Origin: Escherichia coli | GTDB taxonomy: Bacteria > Pseudomonadota > Gammaproteobacteria > Enterobacterales > Enterobacteriaceae | DNA length: 64,000 nucleotides | Reading direction: 5' to 3' (one strand) | NCBI RefSeq assembly: GCF_022846255.1 | Contig: NZ_AP025682.1 | The notes under the pieces: generated by a model | What the model saw: only the letters and a program-made list of their open reading frames with translations | What the model was told of the DNA's origin: nothing | Database searches by the model: none | Made by a program: the position numbers and the translations under genes | Part shown: one piece after another, positions 5,091 to 34,951 of the stretch | How positions within the stretch are numbered: position 1 is the stretch's first letter | Layout of the letters: each line of letters begins with the position of its first letter

Positions 5091-6331
5091 CGTGAACCTC
5101 GTACAAACGCCTGCGCTTTCTCCAGACGCGTTTCATAATCAATACGCAACAGCATCATGATGGCTGTCGACATAATCAGTAAGCTCGAACCACCGTAACT
5201 GATCAGCGGCAATGTCAGACCTTTGGTCGGTAACATCCCCGCCGCCGCGCCTACGTTAACCAGCGCCTGGAAACTAAACCAGATACCAATAGAACAGGCG
5301 AGAAAACCGGAAAAACGGTGGTCAATTTCTAATGCTTTGCGGCCAATCGACATCGCGCGAAAAGCGACGAAGAATACCATTAAAAGTGCCAGCACCACAC
5401 CGACATACCCCAGTTCTTCGCCGATAATGGCGAAAATAAAGTCAGTATGCGCTTCCGGCAGATACTCCAGTTTTTGTACCGAGTTACCTAAACCTTGTCC
5501 CCACAGTTCACCGCGACCAAACGCCATCAACGATTGCGTTAACTGATAGCCGCTGCCAAAGGGATCTTCCCACGGATTCCAGAATGCGGTAACACGGCGG
5601 ATACGGTACGGTTCGGCGAGGATCAGCAACACAACCGCTGAAATGCCCATACCGATAATGGCAATGAACTGCCACAATTTCGCTCCCGCCAGGAACAACA
5701 TCGCCAGCGTAGTCACAAACAACACCACCACCGTACCAAGGTCTGGCTGTGCCAGCAGTAACACTGCCAACACCAGAATTACGCCCATCGGTTTCAGGAA
5801 GCCGCGCAGGTTATTACGTACTTCGTCGCCTTTACGCACCAGATAGTTGGCGATATAGCAAAACAGCGACAGTTTTGTCAGCTCCGCAGGCTGAATACGC
5901 AGCAAACCGAGATCGATCCAACGCGATGCCCCTTTAACAGAGCTACCCACTACCAGAACGATCATCAACAGGATGATTGAACCGAGTAGCATCGTAGCGC
6001 TGTAACGTTGCCAGAACTCCATCGGCAGACGCAGCGTAATGATCGCCAGAATGAACGCCAGGATCAGGTAGACGCCATCACGCTTAGCGAAGAAAAAGGG
6101 ATCGTTAGTCAAGCGTTGTCCGATAGGCATTGATGCGGACGTCACCATGATAAAGCCGATCGCCGCGAGGCCGAAGGTCAGCCACAGTAAGGTGCGATCG
6201 TACATGATCAGGCTGTCGGTATCTTTTTCCCGCGAGCCCATCACCCAGCCCTTTAGCGCCGTGGAGATCCAGACCAGAATACTGAATCCTGGCAGGCGCG
6301 GCATTTTCAGGCGAGGAAGAGATAAACGCAT
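5087..6331 (-). CDS. ftsW: Peptidoglycan glycosyltransferase / lipid II flippase FtsW
   Basis: Track ORF 5087..6334 ([10 protein letters not shown]...); trimmed to second ATG to give the 414-aa FtsW start MRLSLPRLK; stop/start overlap with murD; multi-pass membrane protein. Confidence 0.93.
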
Positions 6332-7647
6332 CAACCTAACTCCTTCGCCAGACGGGCAAACTCATTGCCTCGTTGTTCAAAGTTCTTGAATTGATCAAGG
6401 CTGGCACAGGCCGGGGAGAGCAGAACCATATCTCCTGGTTGAACACGCGGAGCCAGCAAGCGCATCGCCTGTTCCATGGTTTCGGTTTGTTCTGCCACTT
6501 CCGGGCGCAGTGCCGCCAGCTGTGCGCCGTCACGACCGAAACAATACAAACGTACGTTATCGCCATTCAGGTAACGTGCCAGCGGACTAAAGTCCGCCGA
6601 TTTACCATCGCCGCCCAGCAACAAATGCAGCGTGCCATCTACGTGCAGGCCATTGAGCGCCGCTTCCGTACTGCCGACATTGGTCGCTTTCGAGTCGTTA
6701 ATCCAGCGCACACCGTTATGTTCCAGCACCACTTCAAAGCGATGCGGCAAACCAGTGAATGTAGTTAACGCTTTCAGGCTACTGGCGCGTGGCAAACCAG
6801 CTGCGTCTGCCAGCGCCAGTGCCGCCAGCGCATTGGTGTAGTTATGCTGACCGGAAAGCTTCATCTCTTTCACGTTCAACACTTTCTCGCCTTTCACCCG
6901 CAGCCAGGTTTCACCCTGCTGATGATTCAAGTGATAGTCGCCCATATTGATACCAAAGCTAACGCAGCGTTCATCCGCACCGCGAATCGGCATTGTTAAG
7001 GCATCATCAGCATTAACCACGCAAATTTTTGCGTTTTCGTAAATGCGCAGTTTTGCTGCACGATACTGTTGTAAACCAAACGGATAGCGATCCATATGAT
7101 CTTCTGTCACGTTCAGAATGGTCGCTGCCACCGCCTGTAAACTGGAGGTGGTTTCAAGCTGGAAGCTCGACAGCTCCAGCACGTACAGTTCGCACTCATC
7201 ATCCAGCAGCATCAACGCAGGCAGGCCAATATTGCCACCCACACCAACGTTAACCCCCGCCGCTTTCGCCATTTCACCCACTAGCGTGGTGACCGTGCTT
7301 TTGCCGTTAGAACCGGTGATCGCCACAATCGGTGCTTGTGCTTCGCGGCAGAATAGCTCGATATCGCCAACGATTTCGATTCCGGCATCAGCGGCAGCGC
7401 TTAAGGATGGATGCGCCAGTGCAATACCGGGACTGGCGACAATCAGATCGGCCGCCATCAGCCATTCATCATTCAGACCGCCCGTGTGGCGTTCTACGGC
7501 TTCGGGTAATTTATCCAGGCCAGGCGGTGTCATACGCGTATCCATAACGCGCGGCGTCACACCGCGAGCGAGGAAAAAGTCCACGCAAGAAAGCCCGGTG
7601 AGGCCCAGGCCGATAATGACGACATTTTTACCCTGGTAATCAGCCAT
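6331..7647 (-). CDS. murD: UDP-N-acetylmuramoylalanine--D-glutamate ligase
   Basis: Track ORF, 438 aa, [18 protein letters not shown]... Confidence 0.96.
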
Positions 7648-10084: not shown

Positions 10085-11568
10085 GCAATCACCCCCAGCA
10101 GACGCGCCACCGTGACGCGATCGGAGTAGTCCAGACGCTGATTGCCAACAATCTGGTAATCCTCATGACCTTTGCCCGCGACCAGTACCACATCATTCTC
10201 TTTAGCCTGCATAACGGCGCAAGTCACCGCTTCAGCACGGCCTTCCATCACTTTGGCATGTCCGGCATCTAACATTCCCGCCAGAATATCGTTGATGATG
10301 GCACGCGGTTCTTCGGTACGCGGGTTATCGTCCGTTACCACCGCCACGTCAGCGAACTCTTCAGCAATTGCGCCCATCAGTGGACGTTTGCCTTTATCAC
10401 GATCGCCACCACAGCCAAAGACGCACCACAGCTTGCCCGCACAGTGCAGGCGCGCCGCCTGTAAGGCTTTTTCCAGTGCATCCGGCGTATGCGCGTAATC
10501 CACCACTACCGTCGGTTTGCCTGGCGCAGTGAACACTTCCATACGTCCACAAACCGGCTGCAGGCGTGCGGCAGTTTTCAGCAGGTCAGCCAACGGATAG
10601 CCCAGCGCCAGCAGCGTCGCCAGCGCCAGCAGCAAGTTGCTGACGTTAAAAGCGCCCATCAGATGGCTTTCAATTTCGCCATCGCCCCAGCTTGAGCTAA
10701 AGCGAATCGTCGCACCGCTGTCGTGATAGTTCACTTCTGTCGCTTTCAACCAGCGTCCGTGACAGTTCGGATTGATATGATCTTCCATTGATACCGCAAC
10801 CGCGTCCGGCAGTTTTGCCAGCCAGCGGCGGCCCACTTCATCGTCGGCGTTAATAATCGCCTGACCGCAATGATGCTCAGAATAAAGCAGCCATTTCGCG
10901 GCTTCGTAGTGTTCCATATCACCATGATAATCAAGGTGATCGCGGCTTAAGTTGGTAAAGACCGACGCCGCAAATTTCAATGCCGCCACACGGTGCTGTA
11001 CCAGTCCGTGGGAGGAAACTTCCATTGCGCAAAAAGTCGCGCCCTGATCCACCAGCCCCGCCAGCTCATGCTGAACATCGACTGCCGAACCGGTGGTATT
11101 TTCTGTCGGGATCACTTTCCCCAGCAGGCCGTTACCAACGGTGCCCATTACCGCGCTGGTTTCGCCAAGCAGTTGGCTCCACTGTGCCAGCAGCTGGGTC
11201 GTCGTGGTTTTGCCGTTGGTGCCCGTTACGCCTACAAGACGTAAATTGTCAGAGGGTTCATGGTAAAAGCGGCCCGCCAGTGCAGATAAACGCTCGTTGA
11301 GCTGGCTGAGATAGATGACCGGTACGCCGTGCATTTCACGGATTTCACCGTCGGTCGCCTCATCTTTCGCCTCTGCAATAATGGCAGCCACACCTTGCGC
11401 TATCGCCTGCGGGATATATCGACGCCCGTCCGCCTGATGACCTACTACAGCTACAAAGAGATCGCCCGCCGCAGCCACACGGCTGTCGAGTGTCATCTCT
11501 CGCAGTGCTCGCGAAGGTGCGTCTGGCACCCACGGAGCAAGAAGGTCGCGCAAATTACGATCTGCCAC
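10081..11568 (-). CDS. murE: UDP-MurNAc-L-Ala-D-Glu--meso-diaminopimelate ligase
   Basis: Track ORF, 495 aa; GTNGKTTTT motif; 4-nt overlap with murF. Confidence 0.96.
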
Positions 11569-13321
11569 CTGTCCCCTCGCCTTGATTAATCACAAATTCA
11601 TTTTTATCGCCCGTTGTCAGCGCATCCGGTTCAATGTTCATGGTACGCAATACGCCGCCCATGATGGCACCAAAGACCGGCGCGGAAACGGCGCCGCCGT
11701 AGTATTTACCCGCCTGCGGATCGTTGATAACAACAACCAGCGCGAAGCGCGGCTGACTCGCAGGCGCAACGCCTGCGGTATAAGCAATATATTTATTGAT
11801 GTAGCGACCATCCGGCCCGACCTTTTTCGCGGTACCGGTTTTAATGGCGATACGATAGCCTTTAATCGCCGCCTTCACGCCGCCGCCGCCCGGTAGCGCC
11901 ACGCTTTCCATCATATGCACCACGGTGCGAACAATGGATTCCGGGAAGACTCGTTCACCGGGAACCGGGGGGTCAACTTTGGTAATCGACAGTGGGCGAT
12001 AAATGCCGTAGCTGCCGATAGTTGCGTAGACTCGCGCTAACTGTAACGGTGTTACCATTAGCCCGTAGCCGAAAGAGAAGGTGGCCCTCTCTATGTCAGA
12101 CCACCGTTGTTTTTGAGGATATAAGCCACTGCGTTCTCCGACCAACCCCAAATTGGTCGCTTTTCCCAGTCCAAAACGTGAGTAAGTATCTACTAACGCT
12201 GAGGACGGCATCGCTAACGCCAGCTTGGAAACACCGACGTTACTCGACTTCTGTAATACCCCGGTCAGGGTTAATTCGCTGTAGCGTGCCACGTCTTTGA
12301 TTTCGTGGCCGTTAATTCGATAAGGAACGGTATTCAGTACCGAGTTTTCCCGCACTACGCCACGTTGCAACGCGGTCATCACCACCATCGGTTTAACCGT
12401 TGAACCCGGTTCAAACACGTCAGTGATGGTACGGTTACGCATCGCCTCTTTCGGCGTGCCACTCAGATTGTTTGGGTTGTATGACGGGCTGTTAGCCATC
12501 GCCAGCACTTCACCGGTGTTGACATCCACCAGCACGGCGCTACCAGATTCAGCTTTGTTAAAGGCCACCGCGTTGTTCAGTTCGCGATAAACCAGCGCCT
12601 GCAGGCGTTCATCAATACTCAGCGCCAGGTTGTGCGCCGCCTGACTGTCGGTGGAAGAGATATCTTCAATTACGCGACCATAGCGGTCTTTACGCACAAT
12701 GCGCTCACCCGGCTGCCCGGTAAGCCATTTATCGAAACTCTTCTCGACACCCTCAATCCCTTGGCTATCGACGTTAGTAAAGCCGATGAGGTGAGCGGTC
12801 ACTTCGCCGGATGGATAATAACGGCGAGATTCTTCACGCAGATGAATCCCCGGCAGTTTCAGTTTTTTGATGTACTCTGCCATGTCAGGGTTTACCTGAC
12901 GCGCCAGATAAATAAAGCGCCCTTTCGGGTTGGCGTTAATGCGGGCTGAAAGCTGATCCAGCGGAATGTTGAGTGCGTTAGCCAGCGCCTTCCAGCGATC
13001 ACCGACGCTGATACCGCCAGCGTCATGCACTTCTTTCGGGTCAGCCCAAATCGCTTTAACCGGCACGCTCACCGCTAACGGGCGACCAGAACGGTCAGTA
13101 ATCATGCCGCGGGAGGTGGAAACTTGCTGAACGCGAAGAGAACGCATGTCGCCCTCTTTCACCAGCATATCCGGGGAGATAACTTGTAACCACGCTACGC
13201 GTCCGAGCAGAAAAGCCAGCGCCAGGAGAATACAGCCGCATAACAACGCAAAACGCCAACTGATAAAGTTGGCATGTTCTTCCTGACGTTTTGGTTTCTG
13301 CGTTTTCGCCGCTGCTTTCAT
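11555..13321 (-). CDS. ftsI: Peptidoglycan D,D-transpeptidase FtsI (PBP3)
   Basis: Track ORF, 588 aa; STVK and KTG penicillin-binding motifs present in translation. Confidence 0.96.
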
Positions 13322-32244: not shown

Positions 32245-32292
32245 TTATGACAACTTGACGGCTACATCATTCACTTTTTCTTCACAACCGGC
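32245..32292 (-). pseudogene. Displaced araC 3' remnant (last 15 codons plus stop: AGCEEKVNDVAVKLS*)
   Basis: Minus strand reads GCCGGTTGTGAAGAAAAAGTGAATGATGTAGCCGTCAAGTTGTCATAA, the canonical AraC C-terminus, about 1.8 kb away from the intact araC body. Confidence 0.85.
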
Positions 32293-32313
32293 ACAAAAGA
32301 CACCCTCTGCCTA

Positions 32314-32736
32314 TCATTCGATAGTCTCAAAATATTCCACCTGCAGAGAATCACGGTGCTCAATGATGCAATAACGCTGGAAATTATTTGCATAATCACT
32401 TTTATCATGAAAAAACCATATACAATCGTTTTGTAGACTCGGTCCCATTCTTTTCAAAAAATCTATTAGCTTTGCTTTCTGAAGAAAAATGTTATCTATA
32501 TTTCGCCATGTAACAATCACTCTTGTTTGCATATCATCAACATTATAGTAATAGCTATACTCGGCTACGTTTGATATGTTTGGCAAATTTCGCAAACTCT
32601 CTGGCGTATAAAGGAAAAATGGGGAAAGTTCATGCTGTGTATAGTGATGTTCCTTTGACATCAATGAGATATAAGCATAGAAAAATATAAAGAATAAAAC
32701 TAAAAATGATAATAAAATATAAATATATTTTGACAT
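32314..32736 (-). CDS. Hypothetical membrane-anchored protein, 140 aa (insertion gene B; candidate partner/immunity protein)
   Basis: Track ORF; N-terminal about 21-residue hydrophobic segment YIYILLSFLVLFFIFFYAYISL; ATG 6 nt after the gene A stop (translational coupling); AT-rich codon usage. Confidence 0.7.
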   Translation of the reverse strand: MSKYIYILLSFLVLFFIFFYAYISLMSKEHHYTQHELSPFFLYTPESLRNLPNISNVAEYSYYYNVDDMQTRVIVTWRNIDNIFLQKAKLIDFLKRMGPSLQNDCIWFFHDKSDYANNFQRYCIIEHRDSLQVEYFETIE

Positions 32737-32742
32737 CTCTAC

Positions 32743-33591
32743 TCACGACCTGTGCGGATAATGAGGGTTTAAGAAAAGAAAAAGCGGTCTTTCAAAGGGA
32801 GATTCTGAAAACTTTATAGCTCCCGAACTTGATAATGAACTATACAACTCATGATTTATTCTGTTTTTATCTTTATAATAATTAGTAACAGGTCTATTAT
32901 TATATTGATTATATAACAATGTTGAAAAAGACTCATCTAATGGCTTTATATAATTTAACCATTCTGGAAGCTTCTTTTTTATTAGTTGATTTTTTTTAAA
33001 AGGAGGATGGGTTGTAAATAAGAATGGCGTAAACTCAGTATTTTTAAAATTCCCTGGCGCTCCATATGTATCCCATATTTGTAAGGCTTTTGTGTAAGAT
33101 AAAGGTTTTGCCAATAAAAGTGGATCGGGGCCTGTTCCAAATACACGATAAAAACCAATCAAGTCTGAGACTAAATCTTCTGCACTAAATCCGCTATCAG
33201 TATACCAGTTAAAAATAAATGAGTTTTGCCATGCTTCAAACCTCTTCGCAGTTCCATACATTAACGTTAAGGCAACTCTTGCTTTAAGAGTGGGTGAAAG
33301 ACATGAACGAACCATAACCTTCGTATAAACACCGGTATGAAATGTAAGATCTACTCCTAATATTTTTTTCCGAATTCCCATTTCCTGATGATAATCAACA
33401 GGAAAATACCAATCATGAAATTCATCGTAATATGTTGAAAAATGTTCTTGCTCCAATTTTCTTTTTAATATTCTGGCATCTTGTCCCTGAGCATGCCCCA
33501 AATCGATCCAACCTAACTCTTCGGTATAAACTAATCCATACTTTTTCGTTGTTGCAAATATTCCATCAGTAATATCGTTACGTTTTCTCAT
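32743..33591 (-). CDS. Hypothetical protein, 282 aa (insertion gene A), no family recognised
   Basis: Track ORF 32743..33594 (GTG) trimmed to adjacent ATG; strong Shine-Dalgarno GAGGGGAG 6 nt upstream; no signal peptide or TM segment; Asn/Tyr/Lys/Ser-rich C-terminal third. Confidence 0.7.
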   Translation of the reverse strand: MRKRNDITDGIFATTKKYGLVYTEELGWIDLGHAQGQDARILKRKLEQEHFSTYYDEFHDWYFPVDYHQEMGIRKKILGVDLTFHTGVYTKVMVRSCLSPTLKARVALTLMYGTAKRFEAWQNSFIFNWYTDSGFSAEDLVSDLIGFYRVFGTGPDPLLLAKPLSYTKALQIWDTYGAPGNFKNTEFTPFLFTTHPPFKKNQLIKKKLPEWLNYIKPLDESFSTLLYNQYNNRPVTNYYKDKNRINHELYSSLSSSGAIKFSESPFERPLFLFLNPHYPHRS

Positions 33592-34070
33592 CACAATCTC
33601 CCCTCAAAAAAAACGTATAGCAAATAATATCAATAAGGAAAAATATTATTTTTCAATATTTTTTTGTATACAATTCATTTTATGAATGAATTTACAAAGA
33701 TAGCTGCGCCTGATGCCGCTACACTTTTGCCAGACCATGTTCTCCTCTGAGGGAGTAACTGGCGTTTTTCATAGAATGCCGTACTTTTTTCAACAACTGC
33801 CACATCGAACGGCATTTATGGTGGCGTGAAGTGCCTGCCATAACCGCTCAATGTGGTGTTCCTACGATGAACAAACCGCTTGATATATTCTCCTGATGCA
33901 ACCGGACAATATGTTCATGATGGGTATCCCGATACATAAGCCTTCGTTTTATTTTTACAAAAAGAAATCGTTGTCGATATTTTATCAAGAAAAAAAATAA
34001 TTCAGGTAAAACGATTCAACTAAAAATAACTAAAATTAATCCCCCGTGAAATATATAAATAACGTCAGAT

Positions 34071-34104
34071 GAAGAAAGCAAGGGGGTTCCCCCCCTTCTT
34101 TCTT
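34071..34104. terminator. Near-palindromic G5/C7 hairpin immediately 3' of the truncated araC stop (candidate terminator, possibly bidirectional)
   Basis: GAAGAAAGCAAGGGGGTTCCCCCCCTTCTTTCTT read directly; followed by a T-rich tract on the plus strand. Confidence 0.45.
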
Positions 34105-34105
34105 A

Positions 34106-34951
34106 TTATTCACAACCTGCCCTAAACTCGCTCGGACTCGCCCCGGTGCATTTTTTAAATACTCGCGAGAAATAGAGTTGATCATCAAAACCGACATTGC
34201 GACCGACGGTGGCGATAGGCATCCGGGTGGTGCTCAAAAGCAGCTTCGCCTGACTGATGCGCTGGTCCTCGCGCCAGCTTAATACGCTAATCCCTAACTG
34301 CTGGCGGAACAAATGCGACAGACGCGACGGCGACAGGCAGACATGCTGTGCGACGCTGGCGATATCAAAATTACTGTCTGCCAGGTGATCGCTGATGTAC
34401 TGACAAGCCTCGCGTACCCGATTATCCATCGGTGGATGGAGCGACTCGTTAATCGCTTCCATGCGCCGCAGTAACAATTGCTCAAGCAGATTTATCGCCA
34501 GCAATTCCGAATAGCGCCCTTCCCCTTGTCCGGCATTAATGATTTGCCCAAACAGGTCGCTGAAATGCGGCTGGTGCGCTTCATCCGGGCGAAAGAAACC
34601 GGTATTGGCAAATATCGACGGCCAGTTAAGCCATTCATGCCAGTAGGCGCGCGGACGAAAGTAAACCCACTGGTGATACCATTCGTGAGCCTCCGGATGA
34701 CGACCGTAGTGATGAATCTCTCCAGGCGGGAACAGCAAAATATCACCCGGTCGGCAGACAAATTCTCGTCCCTGATTTTTCACCACCCCCTGGCCGCGTA
34801 TGGTGAGATTGAGAATATAACCTTTCATTCCCAGCGGTCGGTCGATAAAAAAATCGAGATAACCGTTGGCCTCAATCGGCGTTAAACCCGCCACCAGATG
34901 GGCGTTAAACGAGTATCCCGGCAGCAGGGGATCATTTTGCGCTTCAGCCAT
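34106..34951 (-). CDS. araC: Arabinose operon regulator AraC, C-terminally shortened (281 aa; ends ...EFRAGCE*)
   Basis: Track ORF 34106..35002 trimmed to [23 protein letters not shown]...; matches AraC throughout but stops 11 codons early at TAATAA where the AT-rich insertion begins. Confidence 0.92.

Follow-up and report, generated by a model that had tools for sequence, protein, structure and literature searches.

A two-gene cassette between araC and yabI of Escherichia coli as a candidate orphan type VI effector-immunity pair with a membrane-anchored partner

What does the low-GC insertion between araC and yabI of Escherichia coli encode, and what is the role of its second gene? We addressed this question in a window of 64,000 nucleotides (nt), the whole stretch of DNA analysed (contig NZ_AP025682.1 of assembly GCF_022846255.1), in which the insertion carries two adjoining genes, gene A (32743..33591, minus strand) and gene B (32314..32736, minus strand). 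Gene B starts with ATG, ends with TGA and encodes 140 amino acids (aa), annotated as a hypothetical protein in RefSeq (WP_000049681). The original prediction, made from the sequence alone, regarded its product as an immunity or partner protein, or else as a membrane-disrupting effector. Our analysis favours the first of these roles, which is best supported by the coupling of gene B to gene A, by modules in which hcp precedes the two genes and by tandem arrays of B genes. We therefore propose, with a probability of roughly 0.6, that A and B are an orphan effector-immunity cassette of a type VI secretion system (T6SS), horizontally acquired between araC and yabI.

The open reading frame (ORF) of gene B exists as predicted and is the one annotated in RefSeq. 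By our estimate, the chance of a 140-codon open frame in DNA of ~30% GC is ~1e-5, and this low probability, together with the homologues in many genera and a proportion of nonsynonymous differences (pN) lower than that of synonymous differences (pS), indicates that the ORF is more than a chance one. In the comparison with Salmonella, pN of gene B is 0.30 and pS is 0.76; dN/dS is not computable here as synonymous sites are saturated, and the comparison of pN with pS alone is usable. For gene A, too, pN is well under pS. The E. coli and Salmonella proteins share 45% identity for B and 69% for A, and B is thus the faster-diverging of the two yet under purifying selection. As had been noted, the ATG of gene B lies 6 nt past the TGA of gene A, the gap being 32737-32742 and the end of gene A 32743. 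The minus-strand junction reads ...AGGTCGTGAGTAGAGATG; within its extent (32737..32750), the TGA of gene A (32743-32745) is embedded in GTGAGTAGAG and is followed by the ATG of gene B. The purine-rich ribosome-binding stretch of gene B therefore overlaps the stop codon of gene A, and the junction is likely a site of translational coupling. An identical GTGAGTAGAGAG-ATG junction is present in Citrobacter.

The original prediction hinged on gene B being conserved in related islands, and the B family indeed is. A word-indexed homologue search with gene B as the sole query retrieved nothing but E. coli copies and frameshifted variants, a misleading result that would make B an orphan gene; the family was recovered from ORFs downstream of gene A homologues, of which there are hundreds, followed by a profile search. 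Against 1.84 billion representative proteins, the B profile found 282 clusters (50% identity) at E ≤ 0.001, including 139 at E ≤ 1e-10, and nearly all members are 130-150 aa long. Gene B had no matches in Pfam, NCBIfam, PADLOC or PHROGs, and sequence-profile searches of the PDB with A and B gave nothing significant. When the A homologues were scanned with one genome per species, the resulting 80 loci spanned Enterobacterales, Vibrio, Cellvibrio and Alteromonadaceae. A B-family ORF adjoins A on its downstream side in 76 of the 80, mostly overlapping the stop codon of A by 4 nt or lying within ~10 nt of it; among the four loci with no adjoining B, A is disrupted in two (L055 and L078) and seemingly intact in two (L076 and L086). 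The A homologues of Citrobacter freundii and Salmonella enterica occupy the same araC-yabI site, each followed by a B-like ORF, and in Yersinia, Serratia and Rahnella the pair lies at other chromosomal sites. Several paralogous A-B pairs per genome also occur.

Moreover, a single A gene is followed in some loci by tandem arrays of two to four B copies (L040, 8683-10845; L052/L094, in L094 at 10694-11587; L054, 8497-9698; L070, 8666-9664). Pantoea sp. A4 has four copies; Pectobacterium carotovorum, Enterobacter sp. Ag1 and Photorhabdus khanii have two each. A lone B gene with no A was also detected (protein P0272; L096, 1011-1838). It encodes 275 aa, of which residues 2-137 comprise a B-type anchor and domain and the C-terminal extension of ~138 residues matches no known family; it follows a gene for a hybrid histidine kinase/response regulator, and no CapCone gene lies nearby. 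P0272 may thus be an orphan or repurposed member of the family. Tandem arrays and lone copies are hallmarks of immunity genes, and the two-gene cassettes contain no other gene that could serve as the immunity gene. A 3105-aa protein (P0161) was rejected as a relative of B: its 25 profile matches, in which residues ~430-2700 align with B profile positions 74-114 through an 'LxxWLxxxG...C...W'-like motif, reflect a short-motif resemblance in a repeat protein. In Serratia quinivorans, the region directly past the A-B pair (L012, 8211-9436) contains a resolvase fragment and genes for a 222-aa and a 95-aa protein with hydrophobic segments; a small island with a further pair of effector and immunity genes may lie here.

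The N-terminus of B, described by the original prediction as K3 followed by hydrophobic residues, starts with M-S-K and continues with 24 uncharged residues (4-27), and the highest Kyte-Doolittle average over 19 residues is 2.55. A transmembrane segment is thus present, and AlphaFold2, run with a 44-sequence family alignment, placed a helix at residues 3-26 (pLDDT, the predicted local distance difference test, 95.1; predicted template modelling score 0.84) ahead of a compact alpha/beta domain. From hydropathy and this model, the N-terminal signal-anchor transmembrane helix was assigned to codons 4-27 (32656..32727, minus strand). A hydropathy and motif check of the 140 aa found no second hydrophobic segment and no lipobox. 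The long uncharged stretch and the absence of a lipobox argue for a signal anchor rather than a cleavable signal peptide, as had been supposed, and the E. coli anchor has no cysteine and lacks the features of a Sec signal peptide or a lipoprotein. These features extend to the family: the uncharged stretch has a median length of 22.5 residues, a lipobox-like motif occurs in 2 of 44 sequences, and 109 of 112 full-length representatives have an N-terminal hydrophobic segment.

The topology was examined with the same 44 diverse members. The mean net charge is +2 for the N flank and -1.1 for the 15 residues past the hydrophobic stretch, and 43 of the 44 members carry more positive charge on the N flank than on the C flank. 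By the positive-inside rule, B would therefore be a signal anchor with its N-terminus inside and its C-terminus outside, which agrees with the orientation first suggested for it. In addition, the soluble domains of 92 of the 112 representatives contain either no cysteine or two, and those of 18 contain one or three; the E. coli clade has C105/C123 as its conserved pair, and others have C-x5-C. Proteins whose folding takes place in an oxidising environment typically show such a pattern. Taken together, these sequence features suggest that the 113-residue domain of B most likely faces the periplasm.

This predicted periplasmic alpha/beta domain (32317..32655, minus strand; codons 28-140; Y32, Y40, T44, P52 and C105/C123) resembles DcrB, Mog1 and PsbP. 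Many of the top structural matches are of the Mog1/PsbP/DcrB type, with an antiparallel sheet packed by helices. They include the extracellular domain of PknH (score 7.3), the inner-membrane lipoprotein DcrB (7.0), TiME (6.8), PA1624 (6.8) and LpqN (6.1), followed by the T6SS chaperone SciW (5.9), Mog1 (5.7), PA0094 (5.4) and PsbP (5.0). Most of the best-matching proteins, among them DcrB, LpqN, LppA and the sensor domain of PknH, are extracytoplasmic, in keeping with the predicted location of the domain. A Foldseek search of AFDB50 with B returned nearly exclusively uncharacterised enterobacterial proteins, which are the B family itself. A few neighbours there are labelled DUF943 (A0ABD5H1Y7 and A0A2I0FT96, enterobacterial putative membrane proteins); no B member matched DUF943 in Pfam, which could nevertheless comprise anchored proteins of the periplasm that are related to B. 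A single anchor helix and a confidently folded domain of this type mean that B is not a pore-former or holin, and the alternative role of a membrane-disrupting effector was accordingly abandoned. Indeed, that B is a toxic membrane-disrupting peptide or holin, or the membrane part of a toxin-antitoxin or phage-defence pair with A, is highly improbable: the small size of B, its single strongly hydrophobic helix and its place in a two-gene cassette on a mobile low-GC island would suit such a role, but a well-folded 113-residue extramembrane domain (pLDDT 95) is unlike holins and type I toxins, neither A nor B matched a PADLOC or PHROGs family at a meaningful E-value (no PADLOC match for either; in PHROGs none for B and E = 0.16 for A), the genomic linkage is to hcp rather than to phage or defence genes, and tandem duplication of a toxin gene would be unusual.

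Gene A encodes 282 aa (33 kDa), annotated as a hypothetical protein in RefSeq. Of two possible starts, GTG at 33594 was set aside and ATG at 33591 is most likely, in line with RefSeq and with the conserved MSKR N-terminus of the homologues. The protein is basic, with an isoelectric point (pI) of 9.1, and its highest 19-residue Kyte-Doolittle average is 0.96; sequence analysis found no signal peptide and no transmembrane segment. The core of CAR16209.1, the E. coli orthologue of gene A that is listed in the CapCone-1.tsv file of the Lipocone study (eLife 2025;14:RP108061), matches residues 3-152 of gene A with a single substitution among 150 positions, and gene A has therefore already been catalogued as a CapCone-1 domain. 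That study by Burroughs et al., which is computational, placed DUF4056, CapCone-1 and CapCone-2 in one clade with the lipid II phosphatase toxin TelC (eLife 2025;14:RP108061). The CapCone motifs are recognisable in A: G28 lies six residues before H34, the His of H2, and E120 is the acidic residue of H3. The H4 motif S/GxxSxx appears as S134-G-F-S137-A-E-D140, with Phe-Ser (F136-S137) three residues upstream, and the downstream motif of a small and a polar residue four positions past appears as S143-D144. These motif residues, including G28, H34, E120, S137 and D140, are invariant in 21 homologues, except F136 and D144, each of which is conserved in at least 90%. In the structural model (pLDDT 81), a small hairpin runs up to H34, residues 61-96 form a long hairpin, and 101-123 and 138-152 are helical. 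The match of gene A to DUF4056 (PF13265) was not significant (E = 0.46), and 2 of the 21 homologues matched it at E ≤ 0.001; apart from this match and one in PHROGs (E = 0.16), scans of A against Pfam, NCBIfam, PADLOC and PHROGs gave nothing. Judged by its sequence, gene A is a member of the sister family CapCone-1 and not of DUF4056 proper, and it looks like an active toxin that is cytoplasmic in the producer.

What links this pair to type VI secretion is its neighbourhood in other genomes. In 9 of the 80 loci, including that of Vibrio ruber, hcp lies directly upstream of A on the same strand, and these loci cover both the long (~283 aa) and the short (~234 aa) clades of A. Matches to Pfam PF05638 confirmed hcp ahead of A-B in orphan islands of Rahnella, of Pectobacterium (where the island lies between bioD and uvrB) and of Vibrio (L006, L094 and L095). 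The other recurrent neighbours of A-B were housekeeping genes only (a DppF-type ATP-binding cassette ATPase, LysR and DeoR regulators, a short-chain dehydrogenase/reductase, PolB, RapA, RluA and Ugp). Correspondingly, in the published network data HCP lies upstream of CapCone-1 in 8 loci and RHS is fused N-terminally in 94 (eLife 2025;14:RP108061). In a Salmonella survey, moreover, a DUF4056 ORF in a bicistronic unit within Salmonella pathogenicity island 6 was proposed as a T6SS effector candidate.

Based on these observations, we propose the following scheme, in which we infer the topology, the toxin neutralisation, the T6SS delivery in E. coli and the substrate. A, a soluble CapCone-1 Lipocone enzyme with no export signal, would be packed inside Hcp or attached to it, delivered by a T6SS whose genes lie elsewhere in the genome, and act in the periplasm of neighbouring bacteria. 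Its target, as predicted from the Lipocone superfamily, would be a membrane-lipid head group or a polyprenyl-linked cell-wall precursor. B would be translated together with A, inserted into the inner membrane through its one N-terminal signal-anchor helix with the N-terminus inside, and display its small acidic DcrB/Mog1/PsbP-fold domain on the periplasmic face. There it would bind and neutralise A injected by sister cells. Since A is predicted to be cytoplasmic in the producer and the domain of B periplasmic, the two would meet only if A were injected into the periplasm. The acidic domain of B (pI 5.5) and the basic A are complementary in charge.

Several observations weigh against this effector-immunity interpretation. 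The structural similarity of B to Eag chaperones is real. The E. coli island contains no hcp, vgrG or PAAR gene, the window has no T6SS close to the locus, and at 33 kDa gene A is larger than most cargo effectors of the Hcp lumen. In C. freundii, furthermore, B is frameshifted at a poly-A tract next to an intact A (L002, 7100-7160; L003, 7105-7130; L004): the assemblies contain 7 or 8 A where 6 or 9 would give an open frame, and ~45 downstream codons are open. This frameshift could be due to recent decay, phase variation, transcriptional slippage or a homopolymer sequencing error. Such a frameshift is surprising if B is an essential immunity gene, although inactivity of the T6SS or of A in C. 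freundii, or slippage that restores the frame, would account for it.

The first of these points bears on the possibility that B is an Eag-like T6SS accessory protein or adaptor, whose 'transport-mediating' PsbP/Mog1 domain loads or stabilises the CapCone-1 effector and is not an immunity protein. In the Lipocone study, a 'PsbP/Mog1' protein downstream of CapCone-1 in 89 loci was treated as a T6SS transport/accessory domain (eLife 2025;14:RP108061), and the fold of B identifies it as that partner. We consider such a function unlikely, as none of 44 B members matched DUF1795 or any other Pfam family at E ≤ 0.001, and the stronger structural matches are to periplasmic or envelope proteins such as DcrB. 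The N-terminal anchor and its N-in bias would also put the domain of B across the membrane from a cytoplasmic A. Eag chaperones are soluble proteins, encoded upstream of prePAAR/Rhs effectors, which shield the transmembrane helices of those effectors. B, in contrast, is encoded downstream of A, a protein that offers no hydrophobic helix to be shielded. Tandem B arrays, an orphan B and paired cysteines fit immunity, and with B as an accessory protein the cassette would have no immunity gene. On this evidence, periplasmic immunity is a more probable role for B than assistance in secretion.

Equally doubtful is the view that the E. coli cassette is an inert or decaying remnant, or that B alone is a DcrB-like envelope protein with no toxin-immunity relation. 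The island with an IS630 pseudogene fragment and no T6SS gene, the C. freundii frameshift, the annotation of both genes as hypothetical only, and the resemblance in fold to DcrB, an envelope lipoprotein not known as an immunity protein, are compatible with it. However, both ORFs are intact and the island is at least 99% identical in 485 of the 486 genomes that carry it, A retains all invariant residues of the catalytic motifs, and both genes have pN well under pS. Moreover, orphan effector-immunity cassettes distant from a T6SS core are common.

We return to the effector-immunity proposal to ask whether B represents a new kind of protein. The B family could tentatively be considered an unrecognised class of T6SS immunity protein, in which a membrane-tethered periplasmic DcrB/Mog1-PsbP domain would neutralise an Hcp-borne CapCone-1 enzyme acting on lipid II, undecaprenyl-phosphate-linked precursors or phospholipid head groups; we hold this broader claim at somewhat less than even odds.

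How did the cassette come to lie at this site? In the window, a segment of the E. coli chromosome, the gene order is thiBPQ, yabI, the insertion, araC and araBAD. The composition profile delimits an inserted island of ~1.8 kb (32295..34105; no strand applies) with 28-40% GC against 52-58% in the flanks, and its cargo is gene A, gene B and an IS630 fragment. The insertion disrupts the 3' end of araC (34106..34951, minus strand), which now encodes 281 aa and ends in ...RAGCE* at the island border, AraC losing 11 residues. The last 50 nt of the K-12-type araC were read from the sequence as a remnant (32245..32294, minus strand) encoding ...AGCEEKVNDVAVKLS*. Remnant positions 32281-32292 (GCCGGTTGTGAA) repeat the 12 nt preceding the new araC stop, where the repeat is GCAGGTTGTGAA at 34109-34120; the two form an imperfect 12-nt direct repeat, GC(A/C)GGTTGTGAA, on both sides of the island. 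Directly past the new stop, inside the island edge, lies a GC-rich terminator-like hairpin with a T-rich tail (34080..34097, minus strand), with which the island appears to supply araC with a terminator. The IS630-family transposase pseudogene fragment (33719..33858, minus strand), as annotated by RefSeq in strain S88, is upstream of gene A and before araC, and may be a trace of the island's mobility.

The island was found in 486 of 5426 complete E. coli genomes (~9%), chromosomal and single-copy every time. Named carriers are S88, IHE3034, ABU 83972, APEC O18 and ATCC 11775, the first four of which we take to be extraintestinal pathogenic E. coli (ExPEC) of group B2. B2 ExPEC strains usually carry T6SS loci. 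C. freundii has an identical layout, in which a short araC precedes A-B and a remnant of the araC tail follows (L002, ~5825-5840 and 7303-7345), and Salmonella also has A-B at this araC-yabI site. An island, or a junction, common to several genera suggests either an ancient insertion or transfer through homologous recombination in the flanks.

On the yabI side, the original prediction placed the stop of gene B about 21 bp from the araC remnant with no terminator before yabI. The gap is indeed short, the actual distance being 19 nt, and no terminator-like site was found between the stop of gene B and the yabI ATG (32159), a distance of 154 nt. Because no such site was found, read-through from gene B into yabI is possible. 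Sigma-70-like promoter sites for yabI lie at 32253-32225 and 32217-32189, within or adjoining the araC remnant, and yabI probably keeps its own promoter whatever the read-through from gene B.

If the effector-immunity proposal is correct, about 1 in 11 complete E. coli genomes would encode, at the araC-yabI site, an interbacterial toxin not yet characterised, together with the protein that confers immunity to it. The insertion itself removes 11 residues from AraC, and transcription from it may extend into yabI. The Lipocone superfamily is newly defined, and its bacterial toxin branches have one biochemically studied member, TelC; a tractable A-B pair from E. coli would permit direct tests of substrate, mechanism and neutralisation. 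The toxin family had already been catalogued computationally, and what our analysis adds is that its partner is more likely a periplasmic immunity protein than an accessory factor. The family so far labelled 'transport factor' would accordingly be reassigned to periplasmic immunity proteins with a membrane anchor, correcting a likely functional mis-assignment. In addition, the 282-cluster profile can serve to annotate B genes, which now carry no Pfam, NCBIfam or PDB label.

Compared with known systems, the cassette shares its general design with established T6SS pairs. Hcp-linked pairs of Enterobacterales such as Tae4-Tai4 and Ssp1/2-Rap likewise consist of a small effector with no signal peptide and an adjoining downstream immunity gene, occur in orphan hcp islands and rely on periplasmic immunity. 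Their effectors, however, act as amidases on peptidoglycan, and the corresponding immunity proteins, made with cleavable signal peptides, are soluble in the periplasm, whereas B is anchored and A is predicted to be a lipid-head-group enzyme. Ssp4-Sip4 of Serratia marcescens is also an orphan T6SS pair, inserted into an operon of housekeeping genes; its effector is toxic in the periplasm, and immunity is provided by a membrane protein. Identity of A-B with this pair, which is of a different family, was ruled out, as the pore former Ssp4 is entirely helical and Sip4 crosses the membrane with four helices. DcrB of Salmonella and E. coli (PDB 6e8a) is lipid-anchored and not encoded next to a toxin, in contrast to B with its transmembrane helix and toxin-adjoining gene. 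The Eag proteins (DUF1795: SciW, EagT6/PA0094 and EagR) are soluble and cytoplasmic, are encoded upstream, and serve prePAAR/Rhs effectors with transmembrane helices; B differs in being anchored and encoded downstream, in having an A partner with no transmembrane helix, and in giving no match to DUF1795.

A close counterpart is the CapCone-1 gene with its 'PsbP/Mog1-like' partner (RP108061), which comprises the same toxin family, a partner with the fold of B, and associations with HCP and RHS. That partner was considered a transport/accessory domain, whereas here the anchor, the N-in bias, the paired cysteines, the tandem arrays and the downstream position point to immunity. For the mode of action, a parallel is TelC-TipC of the Streptococcus intermedius type VII secretion system, as TelC belongs to the same ClaspCone-CapCone-TelC clade as A (RP108061). 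TelC is a lipid II phosphatase that acts outside the cytoplasm, and TipC is an immunity protein located at the outer face of the cell membrane. If the broader claim of a new class of immunity protein is correct, A-B would be the first Gram-negative, T6SS-delivered counterpart of TelC-TipC.

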